From: a virus
Virus record (IMG/VR): IMGVR_UViG_3300032180_000001
Coordinates: 120,981 to 184,980 of that record
DNA length: 64,000 bases
Reading direction: 5' to 3' (one strand)
Shown here: piece by piece, positions 3,412-58,407 of the stretch
Layout of the letters: each line of letters starts with the position of its first letter
Numbering within the stretch: the stretch's first letter is position 1
Position numbers and translations under genes: made by a program
The notes under the pieces: generated by a model
Told to the model about the DNA's origin: nothing
Seen by the model: only the letters and a program-made list of their open reading frames with translations
The model's database searches: none

Positions 3412-3879
3412 CTACTTTCTAGGTGTACCGTTATAAACTCTCCCCTTATGCAAACCACATGTGCAGCCTGGAAGACAAGGTTGCTTCCTTGGAGCATTAT
3501 GCTTTCCACAATCACAGCCAGGAAGACAAGGAGGGGACCCAGGAAGACCATGTTTTGCGCATTCGCAGCCCGGAAAACATGGTGGAGATGGTCTAAGATT
3601 TCCAACTGTTCCATCATAAACTCCGTGACAGCTATAGCACAACGGCCTGTAGTGCCAAACATCTGAACCATCTAGTCCGTGAATTTGAGACCATTGCTTA
3701 GCAAAGTCGTTACAAAACGTGCATCCATAACCAGTAGCTTTGCCTCTTACTTTCTTAACAAGAGAATGGAGGTTAAAGTAGTCTAGTTCACCATCGTATG
3801 CCCTACCTTTGTGTCTACCGCACTCGCACCCTGGAAGGCATTTTTTACCGGGGTGATTACTTCGATTTCCTTTAGTCAT
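3412..3879 (-). CDS. HNH-like (His-Me finger) endonuclease with four C(L/F)PGCxCxxH repeats
   Basis: LHSLVKKVRGKA..YGCTFC..AKQWSQIHG...YRPLCYSCHGVYD; AT-rich; own promoter directly upstream of ATG 3879. Confidence 0.55.
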   Translation of the reverse strand: MTKGNRSNHPGKKCLPGCECGRHKGRAYDGELDYFNLHSLVKKVRGKATGYGCTFCNDFAKQWSQIHGLDGSDVWHYRPLCYSCHGVYDGTVGNLRPSPPCFPGCECAKHGLPGSPPCLPGCDCGKHNAPRKQPCLPGCTCGLHKGRVYNGTPRK

Positions 3880-3885
3880 AGTAGT

Positions 3886-3914
3886 ATTATACAACATTCC
3901 TTGAATAAATTCAA
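3886..3914 (-). promoter_or_regulatory. Sigma70/SigA-type promoter for a leaderless HNH transcript
   Basis: TTGAAT-17 nt-TATAAT, 6 nt before ATG 3879; the -35 lies in the palindrome TTGAAT-AA-ATTCAA (3901..3914). Confidence 0.6.
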
Positions 3915-3926
3915 CCATTGAAATTC

Positions 3927-4899
3927 CTAACCAGCATGTTATACAGACGAGTCCATTACCACCGTTCCCGCCTGCACCGCCTGTAACTCCACCGCCTCCG
4001 CCTCCGCCGCCACAGCCGATAGCACCATCGCCACCACGGCCACCGATACCAGCGCTAGCCGATCCGCCACCCGTTCCCCCGAAGAATACCCAGGTTAGAT
4101 TGGTATAACTAGCTCCGGACACTCCGGCACCTCCCCCGCCTGCGACCCCGGTACCCCCAGGAAAATTAGCCGGAAAAAAATTAGGCCCTACACCTGAATA
4201 TGTATTCGAATACGGTGTTATACTACCGCCATTTGTATCGCCATTTGCAGCTGATGCGCCCCCTCCGCCGCTGCCTCCGGTTGTCATTATTCCGCCTGCA
4301 GCAAGAGTCACACCTGTAGCATTTCCTGTTCCATTCCCGCCAGCGGAGGCGGAGGCGATAATGGAACTAGCTGATACCATCCCGACCATACCATAACCAG
4401 CATAAGACTGACTTCCATTTTCACTAGCCCCAGCTGCACCGCCCACACTAGCTGTCCCGGCTGATCCGAAAGCTGCCGACTGGTTTGAATTAGTTACAGC
4501 AAGAGCAGGGGCCTGACCGCCTATATTACTGCCGCGCATGATGTCACCAAATAGTCCTACGGCAGTAACATCGCCCGAAGAGCCGTTTGAACCAGCCGCA
4601 CCGCCCGCACCGCCAGTCCCTGCATAAACATATAGAGAGGCAGGCAAGAGAAATGCCGGGACCAGGTACCGTACAGATGCCCCGGCGCCGCCACCGCCTC
4701 CGCCGCCACGTAGTGTAGAAGTGGCTCCAGAATAGCCTCCTCCGCCACCAGCCCCGGGTCCGATCAGCATCATCCAGACCATGGTAATCCCTTTTGGTTT
4801 TGTCCATATCTGACAGGAGTTTAGACCGATATTGTAAAACACCTGCTGCCGGTCACCTGTATCTGGCCAGCCAAAAAAATCAGGCATGTCAGTAATCAC
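3927..4899 (-). CDS. Glycine-rich putative virion protein (~323 aa, ends VCITCW)
   Basis: GGGGG-rich repeats; natural end TGG T TAG; in the zero frame it reads TTA and fuses to the HNH ORF. Confidence 0.55.
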
Positions 4900-33775: not shown

Positions 33776-34468
33776 ATGACCAGTGGACGTAACCCTGACT
33801 ACATCCCGGGCAAGACCTGCGAGAACTGCGGGAAGCCTATTCCGTGGCGTCCCGGGATAGAGGTGCGAGCGAGAGCCCGCTGGTGCAGCAAAGACTGCTT
33901 CCAAACCGCTGGACGCGATGCTGCACCTAAGCCGTGTGAAAACTGCGGCAAGCCAATCCCGTGGCGGGAAGGCCGCGCAGCCCGTACTAAGGCTCGCTTC
34001 TGCTGCGACGCCTGTAAATTCGCTTGGCAGAAGCTCCACCCGCCGAATCCACGACAACCTCGGGAAACGAAGCCATGCGACACATGCGGCAAGCCTGTCG
34101 AGTACCTTCCATCCCAGAAGCTGGCAAGTAAGTACCCGAACGGAAACATCTACTGCTCCCGAGAATGCTTCGGTATCGGGCATTCTAAAACCATGACGGG
34201 ACGCCGTCCCAGCGGAGGCATCTATACCTCGCCCAGCACCTTCCGACTGATGATCCGACGCGAATTCTTCGACCGCTGCGCCATCTGCGGCTGGGACACA
34301 ACCCCGTGCGACGTCGCGCACATCATCGATCGGAAAGACGGCGGACCCGACTCGCTGGAGAACGTTGTGATGCTGTGCCCGAACCACCACCGGGCCTTCG
34401 ACATGAAGTTGATCCCCGTCGAGACAATCCGGCTGGCACGAGAAACGATCCTGCGTAATCATCAGTGA
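33776..34468 (+). CDS. HNH endonuclease with treble-clef zinc repeats, antisense to the head operon
   Basis: Three CxxC...CxxxC repeats; CAICGW...DVAHII...NVVMLCPNHH. Confidence 0.82.
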   Translation: MTSGRNPDYIPGKTCENCGKPIPWRPGIEVRARARWCSKDCFQTAGRDAAPKPCENCGKPIPWREGRAARTKARFCCDACKFAWQKLHPPNPRQPRETKPCDTCGKPVEYLPSQKLASKYPNGNIYCSRECFGIGHSKTMTGRRPSGGIYTSPSTFRLMIRREFFDRCAICGWDTTPCDVAHIIDRKDGGPDSLENVVMLCPNHHRAFDMKLIPVETIRLARETILRNHQ

Positions 34469-37153
34469 TCACCGTGCCCGTTTCCGTTACCATTCATTGA
34501 TCCGGCCAGGACTGACCGCTCCGCATCGGACGGTATCCACGCCCCAACGTATTCAGGCTCGACCTTTTCCGCACGAGCCCGTCCTTCACGCGCCAGCGCC
34601 CGCAGGACAGCTATCAGACCATCCGTGGACAGATCTCCGGCATCTCGCGTCTTCGTCAGAACGGCTGCAAGCAATGATGCGGGAGATTTCGCAGACGGCT
34701 CAATATTAGGCTGCGCGATACCTTCCTGCTGAAGCTTTTCCAGCCGGTCTGCGGCTAGGTCCATCTCCAGCGTAATCTGGGGAAGCATGGAGTTCGGAAT
34801 GCCGCGAATAGAGTGAGCCATCGCGACCATGACATCCGCCGGGATAACCTCATTGCCTGCCCCGCCTGGAAGTGGCCCCATGTCTTCCTTCTCGCGAATC
34901 TCGTCGATGGTCAGGATCCCCGTGTCCCGCTGAGACTCGTAGATCTCCGTCCGGGTCTTCAGATCAGTCTTCAGCAGCGCGTCAGAATTAAAGCGAACGT
35001 ACCGGTTAGCGGGAATAATATCGAAGAACGCGGTCTCTAGCCTAACCATCCACGGACGCAAGGATTCAATGACCTGAAGGGTACTCATCTCTACCGTGTT
35101 GCCAGTAAAATAGCAGGTGCCGTTCCGACGCGCATACCAAGACTTACTTGGCGTACTTACACACCATACAAGATCTGTAACCTCGTCGGTCACGTACTCC
35201 GGATGACCCTTCGGCTTACGCCACGGTGAAATCTGAATCGGCATAACATACATACCATGCTTATTCGGTCCCCGTACCACGCCCGAGCGTCCAGACAGTG
35301 CGCAGGCAACCTGGAACGCATCAAGCCGCGCTTTATCCTTCTGTGCCATCGTCCAACTTGCGGCATGCCGAGAGCCATCAGCATCGAGGGACGTTTGAAT
35401 GAAAAGCTCAAGCTGTGCCCTGGTAAGCTGGCTCAGAAATTCCGTAGAAACTACCTTAGCAGGAGCATGCTTTGTCAGCACCTGCCCAGCTTGCGCGTTC
35501 AACCTGAAATGCACGTGCCCCCGCTCGTCCAGGTCTTCCTGCCATGCCGGACCGCCATCGTGCTGTCCCGTAAGACCATTTCGCAGATTTCGCACCACAC
35601 TCGCGTGTGAACCGCACTTCCGAGCTATTCCCCGATTCGTCCCACTCGGATCACGAAGTAGCTCAACCCGGATAAGATCCCGCTTCTTCCGCCCACGCCC
35701 GCCTAGCAACGAAACGCCACGCTCTACAGCACTTGGCCCAAACATCTCCGTCAGCGCTGCCCTAATCCGCATTACGTTCAGCGGGTTCACTCGCTCCGAC
35801 TGAGCAATTGTCACGGCACCTGATTCCCCGATCCATCCCTCTGTCCAGAACCAAGCCACCAACTCAGCTAGTGCGTCCGACCACTTCGGCTCTACCGGAG
35901 TCACAACCGGAGCCGCCGCGCAGACCCGCGAATTAATCGGCATAGTTTCTGTAGTTCGCCACTGGTAACCTTCGTTTCTGCGCCTTTCCCCAGACAACAT
36001 CACAGGCCAACGATGATTTGGCGTGGTTACCGACGAATGTGACAGGTTCTCCAGGCGGATAACCGGATAAGACGCGTCATCAAAAACATGTACCTTTTGA
36101 ACTGGCTGCCATTCAGCCATACCCGTTTCAGTATTCAGTCCAAGACAAGTGTCCCCGGCAAGCACCTGATCGTGCCTCAGCCAACCGCGCAAGGTTAGGA
36201 TTTCCGTCTCAGCATCAGCGCAGTTGTAGGTTAGACTGTCAGCCCTTTTCCCGCCAACGCGATCCGGAGGAAGCCCATAAATGGCAGCAAGCTGGGTAGC
36301 GCTAAACTGCTGACTCTCGATGAATTGAGCTTCAGACGGCGGAACTGTTATCGGCTTGTATTCCCAGTCTCGACCGTAGACGAGTGGCGTATGGTTCCGG
36401 ATCGCATCGACTAGCTGCTCCTTGATCTGGTCAGACGCATCCTTATCCACTTCCAGCTGATTATTCTGAAAGGTGCCTGGTGGAAAACCACCGGAAGCGA
36501 ACCAGTCGTTGCCAAACCGCTGGGCTTCCGTTCCCGACGAGATCGTCAGCATGAAATGCCGTAGCGGAGAAATACCCTCCGTACGGCCGGGGAGCGTAAA
36601 TGCCCGGATATGAAAAAGCTCGTCACGCCAGTTTTCAATCAACCGTCCGTAGACGTACACCCGGGTACGAAGGGGATTCCATGGCTGCTGCGGGTCATCA
36701 ATGACGTTAACCATGTCCGGCGGAATCCAATCGATTCCAGTCGGGTAACTAAAGCCATCGCGACCGGTGACGAAACCCCAGGCGTTTCCGTGCAGGAGCA
36801 GTGATGTCATGCACTGGTACACCCAGTCAAAGGTGTTCGCGCTGACTGATGGCCGATCAAAAATAGACGGTCCCCAGTACCTGGCCGCAACGCCACCGCC
36901 GGGGGCTCGTGTGTAAAGCTTGATTGGCAGGCTGGCGAGAGATTCGGCTAGCAACCGGACGCAGGAATAGAGTGCCGGAAGACCGAGTGCCTGATCCTGG
37001 CCGTAGAACGCCCGGGACGGATGAATCGGCCCACCTTGCGAAAATTTGAAGTAAATAGGGTGAATCCCATGGACGAATTAATCGCCATGGAACTCCGCCG
37101 ATAACGCGCTGCTCAACACTTCTGTCAGCCAAGATGCGATCAAGGAAACCCAT
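34462..37153 (-). CDS. Phage portal protein (HK97-like) with intein; needs a +1 shift near codon 34
   Basis: ATG 37153 (RBS GGAGGTGG); the +1 frame from 37053 gives ALYSCVRLLAESLASLP, LLLHGNAW, GISPL, FIESQQFS..LAAIYGLPP. Confidence 0.85.
35098..36222 (-). mobile_element. Intein with LAGLIDADG-type endonuclease (375 aa) in the portal
   Basis: CADAETEILTLRGW...AWFWTEG...SLDADG...VWCVSTPSKSWYARRNGTCYFTGN followed by Thr(+1). Confidence 0.88.
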
Positions 37154-37179
37154 AACCCCTACCACCTCCCTCCGCCTAC

Positions 37180-37194: not shown

Positions 37195-37887
37195 ATGGGT
37201 AGAGGGACGCCGGACCTGGCAGATCAAAAATTCGGGCGCCTGCGGGTGCTGACGCGAGACTGGGACGCTCCTGGTCCACATGCTCAATGGCTGTGCTGGT
37301 GCGACTGTGGCACGATGACTTCGGTAGCTAGCAGCGCTCTGCGCTCGGGTGCAACACAAAGCTGCGGCTGCCTGCACAGTGAACGAACGGCAACATCGAA
37401 CGCAGCTCGCGCAGGCTATAGCGCGCCTATCCGCAGGAACACAAAGCCCCGACCTAGCTTGGCTGACCCAACAGTATGGCGCAGTAGCTCCCGATCCTAC
37501 GGAAGCTGGATTAACATGATTCGCCGTTGCACGCACATGAACGATCCGCGATACCCCGAATGGGGTGGACGAGGTATCACTGTCTGCGAACGCTGGTTGT
37601 CCTTCGACAATTTTCTGGCCGATATGGGAGAACGTCCGCCTAAAATGTCCCTGAACAGAATCGATAACAACGGGAACTACGAACCCGAAAACTGCAACTG
37701 GGCTACATCTCATGAGCAACAGATGAACACCAGGAGCTTTAAACTGATACCCGAAGTGGTAGCCGAGATCAAACGTCTCCGCACAACTGGACTGACACTG
37801 GACGCGATTGGAACGAAGCTCAACCTGCATCGCAATACTGTGTCGCGAGCCCTGAGCGGGAAGACGCGGCAGCGTAGCGGTAAGTAG
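37195..37887 (+). CDS. HNH homing endonuclease with C-terminal HTH, antisense to the head operon
   Basis: [46 protein letters not shown]. Confidence 0.85.
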
Positions 37888-38075: not shown

Positions 38076-38378
38076 TTAAACTTTGCTGTTGTCCTGAGAT
38101 CGCGACCCGGCTGCCGCCTGCCGAACTGACTTTTCGGTCTGCCGAACGTCCCACCCGGTACCATCCCGCCAGCCACGGCGTACCGCTATCGCAAAAATAA
38201 CCAGGCCGTTATGCCACACCCATAGCGCACCGATGACAAGCACAAGCCACACGCGCCCCAATACAAAACCTGGAACCCAGCAAAGCCAGAGAACCACGGC
38301 AAGAACTATCTGCGAAAACCTGACCTTCTTAGCGCGGACCGTAATCTCGCTCAGCGGCAGAAACTTCAGCGTTGTCAT
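38076..38378 (-). CDS. Small membrane protein between terL and portal
   Basis: 100 aa, two hydrophobic segments. Confidence 0.55.
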   Translation of the reverse strand: MTTLKFLPLSEITVRAKKVRFSQIVLAVVLWLCWVPGFVLGRVWLVLVIGALWVWHNGLVIFAIAVRRGWRDGTGWDVRQTEKSVRQAAAGSRSQDNSKV

Positions 38379-40123
38379 ACCGGCATCCTAAGGCAGATGT
38401 TCTCCGCTAAGCGCACAGAGCTGAGAAGGTCGTAGCCGCGCCTCTTCTTCCCGAGCGCCCAGCTAGCCAGGGTAACGGCAACGATCGGCGTAATATCAGC
38501 CTCGCTGTCGCGTCGTGACCAGCCGCGCCCGCCATCTCCGATCTGCCGGGTTTCGGCACTGCCGATCGCAGACCACAGCACAGGTGCCTGCTCCCTGCCG
38601 AGATGAATGACCTGGCGATCACGGATGCCGGTGACAATCTGAGCAAATGCAGCAGCCTCATCAGCACTGCCGGCCGCCAGCACTTCAATCCCTGCCTGCT
38701 CTGCCGCGTCAATCAGCCCGGCCGCCGGTCCGTTCTTCGGAATGCAGACAGCAGCAGGATGGTACTCGCGGTTCAGCTCGACAAGCCGGGGGATGACCCA
38801 GTCCGTACCCTCGCGAGAGCAGCCGCGGGGGATCTCCAGCACCGTTCGATACCTCGTCCTCGGTGGTGACAGAGGAAATTTTTCCTCGAGCTTCGGCTCT
38901 GGCCGTTCCCAGGCCGCTCCGATAGTAGTGACAGTCATCTCCGGGTTGACATCAACCGCGAAGGCCAACGGTCGGACCGCACCACCGGGATCTCCCAGGG
39001 CACACTGACTCCAGGCTTCTTCGGAGACGACCGCCCAGGCTTCCTCTTCGGCCGGCCAGTCGCCAACGCTGAGGATCTCACGGTCAAACTGCGCCATGGT
39101 CATCGTCGCGAATTCCTTGGCCGTCTGCTCATAGCTGATCCTGGTACCCAGGGCAGGATTCGCCTTCGCCCAGGATCGCGGGTCATCCCGGTCATCATGT
39201 CGGTCGCAGACGATGTACCGATTGGTCTTCCGGCCAAGCACCTCATCGCGCGGGCAGGTATCGAGGTGCGGGTCGATCGACCACTCGGCACCCATCAGCG
39301 TCTGATCTTGACGCATGATCCGGCGCCGGACGAGGGCAAGCTGAATGCTATCGTGGTAGCCCGCTGAAGCGGTATAAATGACCTGCGGATTAGGAACCGC
39401 GCGCATGGTCGGCAAAGACGCCCCAACTTGCTCATCGGTCAAAAACATTGCCTCGTCATAGACGACCGTATCAGCTGTGAAACTTCGCCCGGAACCGCGA
39501 GAGCGAGCCAGAAAACGAAGTCGGCTACCAACGCTACGCCGAATCATCTTGCCGCCTTGTCCAAAGATAAGCGTCGGCGCTGGCTTCAACTCGATTGACT
39601 CTTCACCATGACTGGTAATAACCCGGTGAACGCGCCTTCTCAGCTCATCATAAGCGGAGATAGTATCCTGAACCCGGCGGAAATGCTCAGCAGCAGCCTT
39701 GAACTCATGCGCGGTATGAATAATCATCCGCTCGCCGAATACAAAAAGCCCGCCTATCTCCCGAACTTCCAAATTTTGGTTCTTACCGTTCTGCCTGGCA
39801 ACAATTGCAGCGTTCTCAAAAGCAGCCCACCTTCCATCAGGCTTAGTCCCGCAGCATTCGCCGAGCCACCATTCCTGCCATTCATCAAGGCTGTACCCGA
39901 CGGTAGGAGCCCAGTCCAGTAGCTCTTCCGATGCGTGGTTCCCGCAACCTGACTGGTACCCGTTCTGCTTACCGCGCCAGCACGCCCCGCACTTCGGGTC
40001 GATCTCCCGATGCCTGGGGGGAGCGGTCCAGAACCGCGGCATCTGGCTGCCGACTAGCTGACCGTGCAGGATCGACCCGTCGGGCAGGTAAACGTCAGGC
40101 ACCGCGACGAGGTGAACGCTCAT
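38375..40123 (-). CDS. terL: Terminase large subunit
   Basis: Walker A ARQNGKN, Walker B VVYDEA, PQVIYTAS, KANPALG, AFAVDV; possible natural end at CGC T TAG (38407). Confidence 0.92.
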   Translation of the reverse strand: MSVHLVAVPDVYLPDGSILHGQLVGSQMPRFWTAPPRHREIDPKCGACWRGKQNGYQSGCGNHASEELLDWAPTVGYSLDEWQEWWLGECCGTKPDGRWAAFENAAIVARQNGKNQNLEVREIGGLFVFGERMIIHTAHEFKAAAEHFRRVQDTISAYDELRRRVHRVITSHGEESIELKPAPTLIFGQGGKMIRRSVGSRLRFLARSRGSGRSFTADTVVYDEAMFLTDEQVGASLPTMRAVPNPQVIYTASAGYHDSIQLALVRRRIMRQDQTLMGAEWSIDPHLDTCPRDEVLGRKTNRYIVCDRHDDRDDPRSWAKANPALGTRISYEQTAKEFATMTMAQFDREILSVGDWPAEEEAWAVVSEEAWSQCALGDPGGAVRPLAFAVDVNPEMTVTTIGAAWERPEPKLEEKFPLSPPRTRYRTVLEIPRGCSREGTDWVIPRLVELNREYHPAAVCIPKNGPAAGLIDAAEQAGIEVLAAGSADEAAAFAQIVTGIRDRQVIHLGREQAPVLWSAIGSAETRQIGDGGRGWSRRDSEADITPIVAVTLASWALGKKRRGYDLLSSVRLAENICLRMPV

Positions 40124-49409: not shown

Positions 49410-51011
49410 TCAGATATCTCCTCGCGCGTGATCTGCAAGCAGGGTCGGAATAGCTGAGTCAAAACCCGAGACATCGAGTTCTCGTCCATCCTCGGGACGA
49501 GCGATGCTGAACTCAGTCGGCGAGATCGCGATGACCTGAAGCCGGGCGTCGATGCCCATCTTCTGCCGGTACTCTTCCAGAGCCTGATGCGGGTGAATCG
49601 GACCGTACCAGGTCTCCCCATCCGTCCACACTCTGAAAACATCCGCTTGCACTCGGTGACGAGTCGCCCAGGTCATCGGCGCCGCGCAGTCAGTGGATCC
49701 GCCCCAGACGCTCATGATCTTGGCGATAACGGCGTCAAGGCGCATCCGCGGCGACAGGTCGATCGGAAGCAGTTCGGTGCTGAAGGTGAACATGCCGGAA
49801 TACGGCTCGGTCTTCTGGGTGACCATGGCCATGGCAGCGACCGCCTCGACGGCGGTGAACGGGTACCCGGCAATCGCCCAGCCCATCGAGCCAGACGTGT
49901 CGGTGGCGTTGACGATCCGCTTTCCGGACGGCTCAACCGAACCGTAGGCCGCGTAGAATCCCGCATCGCAGGCGTCGGTGATGACCGGAACCGGGGTCCA
50001 GGTGCCGCCCCTGCCGCGCATCGGACGGCCGGCCGCGTATGCCTTCAAGGTGAGCAGCATCTCAACAGGATGGATGCGAGCCTTCGCCAGTCCGGCCGAG
50101 TCGGCGATCCTGGTGGCGACGTCGCTGGTCAGGCTGTCCATCGGGGCGAGCACGCCGAGCCGGGTCAGCTTGGCCAGGTTGCGAGTCAGCGCGCCCAGCG
50201 GAACGTTGCCGTTCGCGATCAGCGCCCGCCATACGTCAGCGTTCCCCGTTGCCTCGGACGGCAGCATCTCGTGCGACAGGGAGCGACAGCCCTCGATGAT
50301 CGAAACCCACTCGCTGACGTCCTGGGTGGCGTGCGCAGCTGCAGCAGCCTGGACAACCGGAATCCCGGCCAGCTCATCGCCGAGAACGCCCTTAGCGATG
50401 TAATTCCACAGAGCCTGCTGCCGCGTGTTGCCGTGGTGCTGGACGTGCGCGAGCCGGATCAGGTCACGCTGCGCCCACTTATCCCGCTGCTTGTACTTGA
50501 GCACCTGGTAGGCGGCACCCTCAGTGCTCTGGCCGGTGTACCAGTTACGGACGCCCTTGATAAGCTGCGGACCCCAGCCGCGGAACATCTCCGCGTACAG
50601 CGCGTACTTCAGGATGTGACCGCCGGTGCGCGCGACCTGCGGCAGTGCCCACAGGGCATGAGCGCGAGCCTCAGTGCTGCCCAGGCCGGATGCCGCCGCG
50701 AGAGCGAAGAGCGCTGGGTCGTTGCACGGTGCCCGGCCCGCCTGGCTGATCGCTACCGCATCGTTGACGAGTCGCGGATCGGATGCCTTTGCGAGCTTGG
50801 TGACTACCCCGGCATTATCACGGGTGAGATCACGCTCGGTAACGTAGTACGTTCCGCCTTCGACCCCCAATGTCAAAAACCTGTTGAGCCGCGCGTAATC
50901 GTCGATGACGAAGACAAACCCGCCCGCGTTGTTCTTGACCTGGTCCTCACGGGCCGGCTCGGACTGCGGAGTGCGCCTCGGGGTGACATGACGCTCCAGC
51001 GCGCTGCTCAT
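49410..51011 (-). CDS. Ro60/TROVE-domain ribonucleoprotein (Rsr-like) with vWA domain
   Basis: QVKNNAGGFVF, RFLTLGVEGGTYY, KYKQRDKW..RDLIRLAH, ALTRNLAKL, DTSGSM (MIDAS), TDGETW; RBS GAAAGGA before ATG 51011. Confidence 0.9.
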   Translation of the reverse strand: MSSALERHVTPRRTPQSEPAREDQVKNNAGGFVFVIDDYARLNRFLTLGVEGGTYYVTERDLTRDNAGVVTKLAKASDPRLVNDAVAISQAGRAPCNDPALFALAAASGLGSTEARAHALWALPQVARTGGHILKYALYAEMFRGWGPQLIKGVRNWYTGQSTEGAAYQVLKYKQRDKWAQRDLIRLAHVQHHGNTRQQALWNYIAKGVLGDELAGIPVVQAAAAAHATQDVSEWVSIIEGCRSLSHEMLPSEATGNADVWRALIANGNVPLGALTRNLAKLTRLGVLAPMDSLTSDVATRIADSAGLAKARIHPVEMLLTLKAYAAGRPMRGRGGTWTPVPVITDACDAGFYAAYGSVEPSGKRIVNATDTSGSMGWAIAGYPFTAVEAVAAMAMVTQKTEPYSGMFTFSTELLPIDLSPRMRLDAVIAKIMSVWGGSTDCAAPMTWATRHRVQADVFRVWTDGETWYGPIHPHQALEEYRQKMGIDARLQVIAISPTEFSIARPEDGRELDVSGFDSAIPTLLADHARGDI

Positions 51012-51050
51012 CAGAAAAATCCTTTCTCGTACTGCGATATAAAAGCAGAA

Positions 51051-51124
51051 GCCCTGCGGGCATAAGAACGGCTGACGGATTGCCATGGTTTGAGTGATAA
51101 CCGTCTGCCTCCGGCTCGCAGGGT
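51051..51124 (-). ncRNA. Short Y-RNA-like unit 6 (no tRNA domain)
   Basis: CCCTGCG/CGCAGGG terminal stem, GCGAGCCGG...CGGTTATC motif, GACGG/CCGTC stem. Confidence 0.65.
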
Positions 51125-51129
51125 GCTGC

Positions 51130-51426
51130 TCAGAACTGCGTCTCGGTAAGAGCCTCAACGATGGTGATCTCCGGCGGGCCTTGCGCACCGACTTCCGCGA
51201 TGAATGACTGCAGAGCAGGGTTGGCGAAGAACTGCTGGAACTGCTCCGCGGTCTCCCACTCGTCGACGACCACGACGATGCCGTCGCCGATGCCGAACTG
51301 GTGATGGAGCGCGCCCTGTGACTGGCTTGAATCGGTGATTTCCGTGAACACAGCGGCCCGATCGGTCAGGGCCTGACGGAACACTGCGGTATCACCGGGG
51401 AACTTCATGATGACGAGTACGCTCAT
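51130..51426 (-). CDS. ABM-like dimeric alpha/beta-barrel protein
   Basis: 98 aa; VVVDEWETAEQFQQFF; RBS GAAAGGA. Confidence 0.6.
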   Translation of the reverse strand: MSVLVIMKFPGDTAVFRQALTDRAAVFTEITDSSQSQGALHHQFGIGDGIVVVVDEWETAEQFQQFFANPALQSFIAEVGAQGPPEITIVEALTETQF

Positions 51427-56912: not shown

Positions 56913-57189
56913 TGCTATCCGATTCAGTATATAGCTCCAAGTCTTCCAAATAATCACAAGCGGCTAGCTTTCCCTCAAGGTATGTCACGACCCACGCTAT
57001 AAAACGAGCATCGTCCTCCAAACTGTTTTTCTCCGCCAAAATAACAGTTAGAGAGCACCTCCCGCTACCTCCATTATGGGTACGCAGACCTGACGCCTTC
57101 ACCCTCAGCATCCGAAGAGGCTGCCCGCCGGATCCCCCTCCATATTTTTCATCCAGACGAATTTCCGTCGTTATCGTTGCTGCAATCAC
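56905..57189 (-). CDS. Hypothetical protein
   Basis: 94 aa, coupled. Confidence 0.4.
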   Translation of the reverse strand: MIAATITTEIRLDEKYGGGSGGQPLRMLRVKASGLRTHNGGSGRCSLTVILAEKNSLEDDARFIAWVVTYLEGKLAACDYLEDLELYTESDSNA

Positions 57190-58205
57190 TGTTGTCCGTC
57201 TTTCAGTTCGTTTAGACACGTCGCATTTGCATCAGTAATCATAGCGATGGCCGACCCGTGTCGAGCAGCCGTCTCAACAATTCCGGACGCGTTCTTAGCT
57301 AGCATCTCTATGCGCTGCCGATGCTGCTCAACAGTTGCCGTACCCCAGGTAACCATCGTACCATCACCGAGCGCTATCTGGGTATTCAACAGCTCAGTTG
57401 TAACTTCCAGACGAGTCTGCGCAGCTACCTCATAGATCAGCTTATAAATTTGTTTTCTTCGAAGCTCCTCGTAATACGCCATTGGCCCATCCGGATGCCA
57501 ATTAGATTCAAAAAAAGCAACACTCCTCTCATCGGTATTTGCAGCAGCAGCACGCGCACGCTCATACCAGTCGGCAAAATCCTTGCCAAGCCACCTGCGG
57601 AACTTCTTTCGTTCATGTGCATCCAGCCATACGCCTGGCCCCGCCAAGCAGTCTCTATACTTGATAAACTCCGGTGGTGTGGGGGCGACCGCATGCTGCG
57701 GATCATCTCGACGCCACTCAACCAAATTTTCTCTCGCCGTAGCCGTATATACATACTCCACGCCGATAGCCTCCGCGTACTCTTGCCTGATTCCCTCTGG
57801 TATAGCACCACGATCCGGTACTACGCGACCTGTCCTAACCCCCCATTCCCGAATAACACGAGCCGGATGAGCTGCTACGAAATCACTTCGCTGACGACAC
57901 CACTCCCGATGCTGTTCTTCCTTGAGCCTCTGCTCTGAACGTCGTACCTCTCGTGCCGTCTGCTGTGCTGTTTCATATTCGATTCGCTGCGCTTCCCTAG
58001 CTGCACGATCCTCCGCTACGCGCGCCTGCTGACGACGATGACCTGCCACATAAGAACTAAGCATCCCGATAGCAAACTCGCGAAGCCGATCCTGATTCAT
58101 TCCTCTCGCCACAGTAGCAGCAATGACTTCCGGGTCATCATCCTGACGCTCATCAGCTAGCTGAAGTGCCTGCGTGATCCAGGCGGAATACGTGTCCTCA
58201 GGCAT
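57186..58205 (-). CDS. Helical protein with an internal Lsr2-like DNA-binding domain
   Basis: IREWGVRTGRVVPDRGAIPEGIRQEY. Confidence 0.55.
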   Translation of the reverse strand: MPEDTYSAWITQALQLADERQDDDPEVIAATVARGMNQDRLREFAIGMLSSYVAGHRRQQARVAEDRAAREAQRIEYETAQQTAREVRRSEQRLKEEQHREWCRQRSDFVAAHPARVIREWGVRTGRVVPDRGAIPEGIRQEYAEAIGVEYVYTATARENLVEWRRDDPQHAVAPTPPEFIKYRDCLAGPGVWLDAHERKKFRRWLGKDFADWYERARAAAANTDERSVAFFESNWHPDGPMAYYEELRRKQIYKLIYEVAAQTRLEVTTELLNTQIALGDGTMVTWGTATVEQHRQRIEMLAKNASGIVETAARHGSAIAMITDANATCLNELKDGQQ

Positions 58206-58254
58206 TACGGTGCATCCATCCCACGAAAATCCTCGCTGACGTGCTTGCCTGCTG

Positions 58255-58407
58255 TCACTCTTCCCAGCCTCCCTCGCACGGGCAGTCATCGACGTTGCAG
58301 TGCCCCCAGCCGTGCTCCTCAGAGTCATGCTCGCAGGTGCAGTCGCTGAAGCTCGCCGAGTACTCCCACTCGCCGCCTTCGTCATCATCCGGGTCGATCA
58401 CCGTCAC
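58255..58407 (-). CDS. 50-aa acidic Cys/His peptide
   Basis: CTCEH...H..HC...CPC. Confidence 0.4.
   Translation of the reverse strand: MTVIDPDDDEGGEWEYSASFSDCTCEHDSEEHGWGHCNVDDCPCEGGWEE

Follow-up and report, generated by a model that had tools for sequence, protein, structure and literature searches.

Two UUA codons set between matched codons in the portal gene of an actinophage-like virus: probable sites of short translational bypassing

Translational bypassing at the rare leucine codon UUA has been described in the large terminase gene of the Streptomyces phage phiHau3 and in two Streptomyces prophages (Antonov et al., RNA Biol 2023, PMC10732093), following a proposal for phiHau3 made in 2013 (Smith et al. 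2013, as cited in PMC10732093). A full-length phiHau3 terminase product was reported in Streptomyces, and in E. coli the event was characterized with mass spectrometry of the junction peptide, a reporter, a control with a +1-frame stop, and UAA in place of UUA (PMC10732093). UUA-mediated bypassing is still termed a candidate mechanism, resting on one phage terminase and two prophages. Here we analyze a window of 64,000 nucleotides (nt) of viral DNA, namely the last 64 kb (positions 120,981-184,980) of the 184,980-bp contig IMGVR_UViG_3300032180_000001, in which the phage portal gene is interrupted twice by a TTA codon standing between synonymous codons. We propose that both interruptions, called site 1 and site 2, are quite probably short translational bypass elements triggered by UUA and of the same kind as those in the phiHau3 terminase. 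Coordinates refer to the window unless they are marked as genome positions.

Other systems in which ribosomes skip part of a message offer further points of comparison. T4 gene 60 contains a 50-nt coding gap and is connected with a MobA homing-endonuclease cassette (PMC5009743; bioRxiv 10.1101/2022.08.31.505936). Short tRNA hops at hungry codons are on record from E. coli (Weiss et al. 1987 and Gallant et al. 2003, as cited in PMC10732093, refs 47-52), and byp elements from the mitochondria of Magnusiomyces capitatus (as cited in PMC10732093 and PMC5009743). Our literature search returned no paper on such bypassing in portal genes or on a family-wide series.

The portal gene lies on the minus strand and starts with an ATG at 37153-37151, upstream of which we read the strong Shine-Dalgarno (SD)-like sequence GGAGGGAGGTGG. 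Although the listing of open reading frames (ORFs) opens the initial portal frame at GTG 37165, ATG 37153 is the likely start because homologues begin with MGF or MGL. Further on, the minus strand reads CCA TGG CGA TTA ATT CGT CCA TGG GAT TCA CCC TAT TTA C TTC AAA. The frame that encodes the portal domain (Pfam Phage_portal, E 1e-52) differs from the frame of the N-terminal 30 codons and is closed upstream by a TAA at 37080-37078. Removal of both inserts gives GGVPWRPWDSPYFKFSQGGP, which has the length found in every uninterrupted homologue and a nearly identical sequence. The portal gene of ~900 codons contains these two TTA codons and no others, the 830-codon ORF contains none, and both TTAs have matched flanking codons. 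Given the 21 parallel cases in relatives described below, matched codons at both window TTAs are far beyond chance. The original prediction for this stretch was confirmed at the base level, as both TTA sites and their synonymous take-off and landing codons are present on the minus strand, a 9-nt in-frame hop is possible at site 1, a +1 slip there reads TAA, and the zero frame stops at 36857, with no start codon in the portal frame before TTG 36954, the first ATG, GTG or TTG of that frame and already 8 residues within the Pfam domain. Its proposal that an essential head gene is recoded at two UUA sites is likewise supported, in that the arrangement of frames indicates that standard decoding cannot yield the portal protein.

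To place the two sites in context, relatives were collected in three collection scans, which gave ~38 distinct portal genes with 47-79% identity, all from soil-type metagenomes. About 20 of these genes have no interruption, their single frame reading ...GGVPW[RQ]PWDSPYWKFSQGGP.HP...; the alignment with homologues that the original prediction had proposed thus shows uninterrupted portals encoding the joined sequence it had predicted. The 18 interrupted genes carry 23 inserts (Table 1), which fall at eight codon positions of a single 18-codon stretch, all within the first 40 codons of the portal, with as many as three sites per gene. Hops range from +2 to +11 in nine lengths, and gaps from 0 to 8 nt. 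A TTA stands immediately 3' of the take-off codon in 23/23 inserts, and in 19/23 the landing codon is identical or synonymous to the take-off codon and shares its first two bases. Four Trp (UGG) take-offs land on AGG, AGG, UGU and UGA, each sharing two of three bases. At all six in-frame sites of the family, the landing codon still matches the take-off codon. By our own rough estimate, a random insert would start with TTA and end in such a codon about once per thousand. Identical inserts are present in independent assemblies (L001 = L002, L003 = L004). On the portal-domain tree the two classes of genes, interrupted and not, are intermixed, with L154 sister to L156, L007 sister to L134, and L001 grouped with L005; the inserts are therefore gained and lost often. 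An exact-match search of viral contigs with the 57-nt site of the window found no second copy.

Table 1. Inserts in interrupted portal genes, written as take-off[gap]landing, followed by the length of the hop
Gene	Insert(s)	Hop(s)
Window	CGA[TTAATT]CGT; TAT[T]TAC	+9; +4
L001/L002	CGA[TTAAAAT]CGT	+10
L003/L004	CGA[TTAATTT]CGA; TGG[TT]AGG	+10; +5
L007	TCT[TTAGGTAA]TCC	+11
L008	TCT[TTAG]TCC	+7
L143	AGC[TT]AGC	+5
L145	CAG[TTAC]CAG	+7
L150	GTT[TTA]GTC; CGA[TTA]CGC	+6; +6
L151	CGA[TTATTA]CGT	+9
L152	CAG[TTATT]CAG; TGG[TTAG]TGT; CCG[TTAG]CCG	+8; +7; +7
L154	CGC[TTAGGAC]CGT	+10
L155	TTT to TTT on TTTTTA	+2
L157	TGG[TTAAGCC]AGG	+10
L160	CGA[TTAC]CGC	+7
L185	CGA[TTATCT]CGC	+9
L191	CGA[TTAA]CGC	+7
L198	TGG[TTAACATC]TGA	+11
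L199	GTT[TTA]GTC	+6

When the gap and landing codon are deleted, 14 interrupted genes (19 sites) and 15 uninterrupted genes have a core of equal length, 23 residues, and the joined cores fit the consensus of the uninterrupted genes. Four sites found later, joined by eye, likewise return this consensus. The ratio of nonsynonymous to synonymous changes per site (pN/pS) in the core is 0.25 in interrupted and 0.32 in uninterrupted genes, with synonymous sites near saturation. This low ratio indicates that the pieces are translated, even where they are spread across three frames as in L003 and L152. The portion of 37 portal genes beyond the hop zone has a single TTA among 19,697 codons, of which 1,871 encode Leu. 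In the large ORFs of the window genome TTA accounts for 7 of 21,662 codons, five of the seven at extreme ORF ends. A whole-portal tblastn against all loci (37 genes) detected a sole other frame break, a plain 1-nt deletion in L159 that has no TTA. This deletion (L159:1590-1615, relative to L156) probably reflects faulty assembly or a genuine mutation and gauges the background error rate. The single downstream TTA is codon 705 of the open frame of L008 (AAC TTA TGC), a frame that runs far past the usual portal length, and may mark a gene junction or a further recoding site.

A second gene of the same genome is interrupted in the same manner 3.6 kb before the window. At genome positions 117,319-117,325 on the minus strand (L133:1820-1826), the sequence TAC[T]TAT contains a TTA in frame, and the 130 codons upstream and 229 codons downstream of it (the latter matching Pfam Glyco_trans_1_2) are halves of one glycosyltransferase. 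Relatives of this glycosyltransferase are uninterrupted at 14/14 loci, with the halves joined at one shared Tyr codon; 11 of the 14 read ...[ST]E[SE]PY[QE]..., having a single Tyr at the junction. The sequence that a +4 hop would restore is exactly the HTESPYQDGEQL of L168, with no residue gained or lost. This site was also recovered by a genome-wide scan for frame-changing X-TTA-gap-X' arrangements that used ORF geometry and codon-usage scores, the other translated candidates being junk. Applied to the flanks of every related locus, the X-TTA-gap-X' scan yielded just spurious GC-rich ORFs.

Sequence comparison across the family is consistent with the peptidyl-tRNA re-pairing downstream while the A site waits at UUA, as in hungry-codon bypassing. 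On the window message (Table 2), translation would begin at ATG 37153 and proceed until peptidyl-tRNA(Arg) occupies CGA with UUA in the A site, where scarcity of the cognate Leu-tRNA would cause the ribosome to pause. Peptidyl-tRNA(Arg) would then unpair and re-pair 9 nt downstream on CGU. Six codons on, peptidyl-tRNA(Tyr) on UAU would meet the second UUA and re-pair 4 nt downstream on UAC, a hop that would shift the ribosome into the portal frame. The predicted product is a full-length portal protein with the canonical N-terminus of the family (...GGVPWRPWDSPYFKFSQGGP...), and the junction peptide expected from bypassing is ...VPWRPWDSPYFK..., without Leu and with one Tyr. Decoding of the UUA at site 2 as Leu would instead lead to termination after 98 codons and to no portal protein. 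Both sites would thus be hopped when Leu-tRNA(UAA) is scarce, and when it is abundant site 2 would be read and translation would end at 36857.

Table 2. Coordinates of features at the portal gene and of the endonuclease genes next to the two interrupted genes
Feature	Position	Strand	Basis or remark
Shine-Dalgarno-like GGAGGGAGGTGG	37162..37173	-	sequence
Portal segment 1 in the take-off frame, from ATG 37153 through Arg codon 24 (MGFLDRILADRSVEQRVIGGVPWR)	37082..37153	-	N-terminus as in uninterrupted homologues
Site 1 take-off CGA (Arg)	37082..37084	-	same codon in L001, L003, L150, L151, L160, L185, L191
Site 1 coding gap TTAATT; UUA 37081-37079 would occupy the A site	37076..37081	-	+1 frame is TAA
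Site 1 ATT	37078-37076	-	sequence
Site 1 putative landing CGT (Arg), +9 in-frame hop	37073..37075	-	sequence, homologue comparison
Predicted hairpin, UUAAU in loop	37058..37099	-	fold computation
Portal segment 2, CCA TGG GAT TCA CCC TAT (PWDSPY)	37055..37072	-	sequence
Site 2 take-off TAT (Tyr)	37055..37057	-	sequence
Site 2 in-frame TTA; first T (37054) alone would be skipped	37052..37054	-	sequence
Site 2 putative landing TAC (Tyr), +4 hop into portal frame	37051..37053	-	sequence; glycosyltransferase TAC-T-TAT has the same build
TTC, first codon after site 2	37050-37048	-	then AAA TTT TCG
Portal segment 3, remainder of gene to stop, Pfam PF04860, no more TTA	34462..37050	-	domain search
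Zero-frame stop; ends 98-aa product if site 2 is read as Leu	36857..36859	-	ORF reading
Free-standing HNH endonuclease gene, phrog_374, E 7e-61	37195..37887	+	divergent, 42 nt from portal ATG
HNH endonuclease gene, phrog_1492, E 8e-41	L133:2323-2856	+	divergent, 14 nt from glycosyltransferase start

Several features around the sites could assist hopping. Among synonymous pairs, CGA is followed by CGT or CGC seven times, TCT by TCC twice, GTT by GTC twice and TAT by TAC once, with the reverse order seen once; our count is suggestive of take-off codons tending to the weaker wobble pair and landing codons to the stronger. Site 1 lies in a hairpin of -24.3 kcal/mol (z = -4.83, with 0/200 shuffles as stable; z = -4.94 in L003) in whose stem the two Pro-Trp codon pairs (both CCAUGG) bind each other and CGA binds UCG, with an SD-like GGAG at its 5' base. 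A hairpin with UUA in the loop is present at all nine sites that follow VPW[RQ] (the window and 8 relatives), because the two Pro-Trp codon pairs (CCNUGG) are mutually complementary. Fold computation found no such fold at the +2, +4 and +5 hop sites, including site 2 of the window. GGAG or GAGG occurs in the Gly-Gly-Val codons of 9/18 interrupted versus 2/19 uninterrupted genes (Fisher p = 0.013, uncorrected for shared ancestry). Weak wobble pairing at take-off, the SD-like GGAG and the hairpin may each help the hop. In addition, ~16 small ORFs (genome 12,200-16,100, 30,700-32,000 and 65,700-66,600) end in ...R-L-V-V-V-P-W-[RQ]-P a few residues before their stop, and the portal N-terminus is similar to these ends, with R-V-I-G-G-V-P-W-R-P-W, precisely at the hop sites. 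The shared VPW motif could be a docking motif or a nascent-peptide signal.

In build, the portal sites resemble those of phiHau3, which we read from JX182369 as GGC[TTACTCC]GGT and TCT[TTAACGG]TCC. Both systems have a take-off codon, an adjoining in-frame UUA, a short non-coding block and a synonymous landing codon, and removal of the block restores a conserved protein. In each case the gene acts late, in structure or packaging, and the genome is actinophage-like and avoids TTA elsewhere; each also shows a local hairpin, an SD-like element and a Trp/Gly-rich nascent peptide just before take-off (KGWG in phiHau3, GGVPW in the portal). As is typical of phiHau3-type sites, UUA stands right after the last shared codon (at the 2 window sites and 21 in relatives), a cognate landing codon follows and the protein is restored; standard UUA decoding causes a premature stop at site 2 (98 codons), a property that does not apply to site 1, which is in frame. 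The two systems differ in the genes concerned (terminase there, portal and glycosyltransferase here) and in hop length (+10 and +7 there, +9 in frame and +4 here, +2 to +11 in the family). The portal sites also differ in lying within the first 40 codons, in an 18-codon hotspot with up to three per gene, and are known from sequence alone. We consider the feature real and quite probably of the kind known from phiHau3, the portal case having high comparative support.

T4 gene 60 resembles the window sites in the re-pairing of peptidyl-tRNA at a matched landing codon and the slow A-site codon after take-off that we propose here, in a take-off region predicted (at site 1) to form a hairpin, and in an adjoining free-standing homing-type endonuclease gene. 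It differs in its gap of 47-50 nt and its UAG trigger, compared with gaps of 6 and 1 nt and the rare sense codon UUA here; neither window site has a ~50-nt gap with a stop after take-off, and no homology to the gene 60 element was seen. According to the reports that cite it, E. coli hopping likewise occurs where a rare or starved codon leaves the A site empty, the peptidyl-tRNA sliding to re-pair a few nt on with a cognate codon; there it is low-level and was seen in artificial constructs, whereas here it would be the sole route to an essential protein and selected in many lineages. The byp elements, as summarized in the same literature, are similar in consisting of many independent short inserts with matched or two-out-of-three take-off and landing codons and with fast gain and loss, but they are 27-55 nt long, mobile, subject to mitochondrial translation and not led by UUA.

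The original prediction further held that the two sites differ in what they require, the first having to be passed and the second to be shifted, and that they possibly act as a window filter on tRNA level. Neither point is supported, as reading or hopping site 1 both keep the frame and the two sites would act in the same direction. Site 1 has the build of obligatory frame-changing sites at the same codon (+10 in L001 and L003, +7 in L160 and L191) and of other in-frame sites (+9 in L151 and L185, +6 in L150 and L199), and the natural reading of these sequences is that both window sites would respond alike to scarce Leu-tRNA(UAA). It seems unlikely that site 1 must be decoded as Leu-Ile-Arg and site 2 hopped, with portal protein made in a middle window of tRNA level only. 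Read-through of site 1 is possible in that the site is in frame; a +1 slip there gives TAA, and L151 and L185 likewise encode R-L-x-R in frame, but nothing compels read-through at this site. The matched landing codons kept at 6/6 in-frame sites would be needless under plain decoding, the same codon position serves obligatory +7 and +10 hops in relatives, and a 3-residue insertion would be unique among cores fixed at 23 residues. A frame-intact homologue with R-L-x-R had been named in advance as grounds to abandon the prediction; such homologues do exist, in L151 (RLLR) and L185 (RLSR), but their extra residues come from TTA plus a matched Arg codon and hence argue for hopping and not against it. 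Also very improbable, it appears, is a programmed +1 frameshift of the classical form (Ty3 or hungry-codon type) at TAT-TTA-C, with an incoming Tyr-tRNA reading TAC out of frame, no re-pairing, and site 1 as an ordinary insertion. While a hungry A-site codon is a known +1 trigger (PMC5009743) and the net change at site 2 is +1, this shift would give SPYYFKF, one residue more than in all 29 cores, and the glycosyltransferase would read ESPYYQ, against a single Y at all 14 relative loci. In a shift of the prfB/Ty type UAU would re-pair on the non-cognate AUU, and the +1 codon at site 1 is a stop. A plain +1 shift also cannot explain the family, because the +1 codon is TAA or TAG at most sites and displacements of +2, +5, +7, +8, +10 and +11 are needed.

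Errors in the sequence and alternative starts were weighed in the same way. The contig is metagenomic and relative L159 carries a plain 1-nt deletion, so that a sequencing or assembly indel, or a decaying pseudogene of a defective phage, deserves consideration; we regard it as highly improbable given a contig rated 99% complete with an intact head module, the same build of TTA and matched codons at 22 other sites (some identical in independent assemblies), purifying selection across the breaks and the lack of a homopolymer at the site. We give almost no credence to initiation of the portal further downstream (TTG 36954 or some non-canonical codon), with the upstream ORF encoding a separate small peptide. 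This TTG does open the 830-codon ORF, and a functional portal made from it was another outcome that would have overturned the original prediction, but a start 8 residues inside the Pfam domain would cut into a conserved domain, and no ATG, GTG or TTG occurs from the TAA to 36954. Moreover, all relatives conserve the upstream 23-aa core, whose pieces are each under protein-level constraint even in L003 and L152, where they lie in three frames. Transcriptional slippage was rejected, a T5 run being present in L155 only. Quadruplet decoding and phage suppressor tRNAs were also rejected, as no tRNA gene was found in the 184,980-bp genome and the gaps vary from 0 to 8 nt.

Several points weigh against UUA-mediated bypassing at the window sites. 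That UUA is slow to decode in the host is deduced from codon avoidance alone, and an assembly indel in the window contig would be excluded by analogy with relatives only. Site 1 is in frame and could be read simply as Leu-Ile-Arg, and the four Trp sites of relatives lack a fully cognate landing codon. The statistics for the hairpin and the SD-like element are suggestive, modest and uncorrected for shared ancestry, and the genome-wide scan for frame-changing X-TTA-gap-X' arrangements showed no enrichment of TTA, control triplets passing equally often.

Each of the two interrupted genes has a divergent HNH endonuclease gene at its 5' end (Table 2). These two endonucleases belong to different PHROG families, and with ~17 HNH-like genes in the genome we roughly estimate the chance of one at the 5' end of both broken genes at 0.005 to 0.02. 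A phrog_374 homologue is located upstream of the portal in 7/16 assessable interrupted relatives. Among the 15-16 uninterrupted relatives we observed one full copy (L009, which has the most substituted core) and one remnant (L006), and the association of endonuclease and insert has a Fisher p of 0.037 or 0.11, depending on how L006 is counted. In relatives without the window endonuclease, no other HNH family was found upstream of the portal. The phrog_1492 endonuclease is present in 0/14 uninterrupted glycosyltransferase relatives. A tentative idea, which we hold to be possible though doubtful, is that the TTA inserts are bypassable scars or immunity alleles of homing-endonuclease attack, instead of or besides a tRNA sensor. 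The cleavage target would be lost through small insertions, such as those left by end-joining repair, and the essential gene would stay expressible only where the insert begins with an undecodable TTA and ends in a matched landing codon. Such a history would explain the pile-up of inserts in one stretch, the in-frame inserts and their rapid gain and loss, and the clustering within 18 codons near the endonuclease may be as expected of a cleavage or recognition site. The arrangement would be a miniature actinophage counterpart of T4 gene 60 and MobA, but the endonuclease link is a statistical hint with weak support. Should the link hold, recoding would be tied to selfish-element conflict outside the T4 family.

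As to purpose, the sites could sense tRNA level or host state, as proposed for phiHau3. They could also attenuate portal dosage (12 copies per virion), the abortive product being kept short by the 5' position, or could reflect mere tolerance of (endonuclease-linked) inserts. Whatever their purpose, the family provides 23 natural variants, which differ in take-off position (eight), in hop length (nine), in whether the hop keeps the frame, and in whether the landing codon is cognate or matches at two of three bases. With the ~20 uninterrupted genes as controls and the glycosyltransferase as another case in the window genome, it forms a natural mutational series for the requirements of short hops, candidates being the landing codon, a weak take-off wobble pair, the hairpin, the SD-like element and the GGVPW nascent peptide. 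A practical consequence concerns annotation: run on soil actinophages, standard gene callers will cut short or split essential genes.

The genome of 184,980 bp has 59% G+C. Its head module, on the minus strand of the window, consists of the large terminase (38375-40123), the portal, an ORF without assignment, an S78 prohead protease and an HK97-type capsid. The terminase matches 1,573 phage records, nearly all from phages of Actinobacteria, while the best matches of the capsid are to Streptomyces phages and those of the portal to cluster J mycobacteriophages, all with ~30-35% identity. Because terminase, capsid and portal are closest to those of actinophages, the host is probably an actinobacterium. 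Two ORFs, at 49410-51188 (-) and 57186-58388 (-), were noted for other domains: one encodes a Ro60/TROVE protein (Pfam vWA_Ro60, E 2e-51) and the other is Lsr2-like. The match to the Lsr2 DNA-binding domain, weak and sub-threshold, hints at an actinobacterial host.

Two further in-frame TTA codons of the window, both on the minus strand, have TAG in the +1 frame. The one at 3928-3930 (TGG TTA GG), codon 324 of ORF 3412-4899, precedes a low-GC stretch with its own AGGA-ATG start. The other, at 38408-38410 (CGC TTA G), is 11 codons before the terminase stop and beyond the part homologous to other terminases. Either TTA may act as an effective terminator. The portal itself contains a 356-residue insertion (~35110-36177 on the minus strand, residues 292-647 counted from TTC 37050) that is missing in most relatives. 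It has Cys as its first residue and Asn as its last, followed by Thr, and is intein-like by position; as it had no Pfam or PDB match, we do not call it an intein. Comparable insertions occur in L001/L002, L137 and L138, and L009 has extra sequence elsewhere in the portal.

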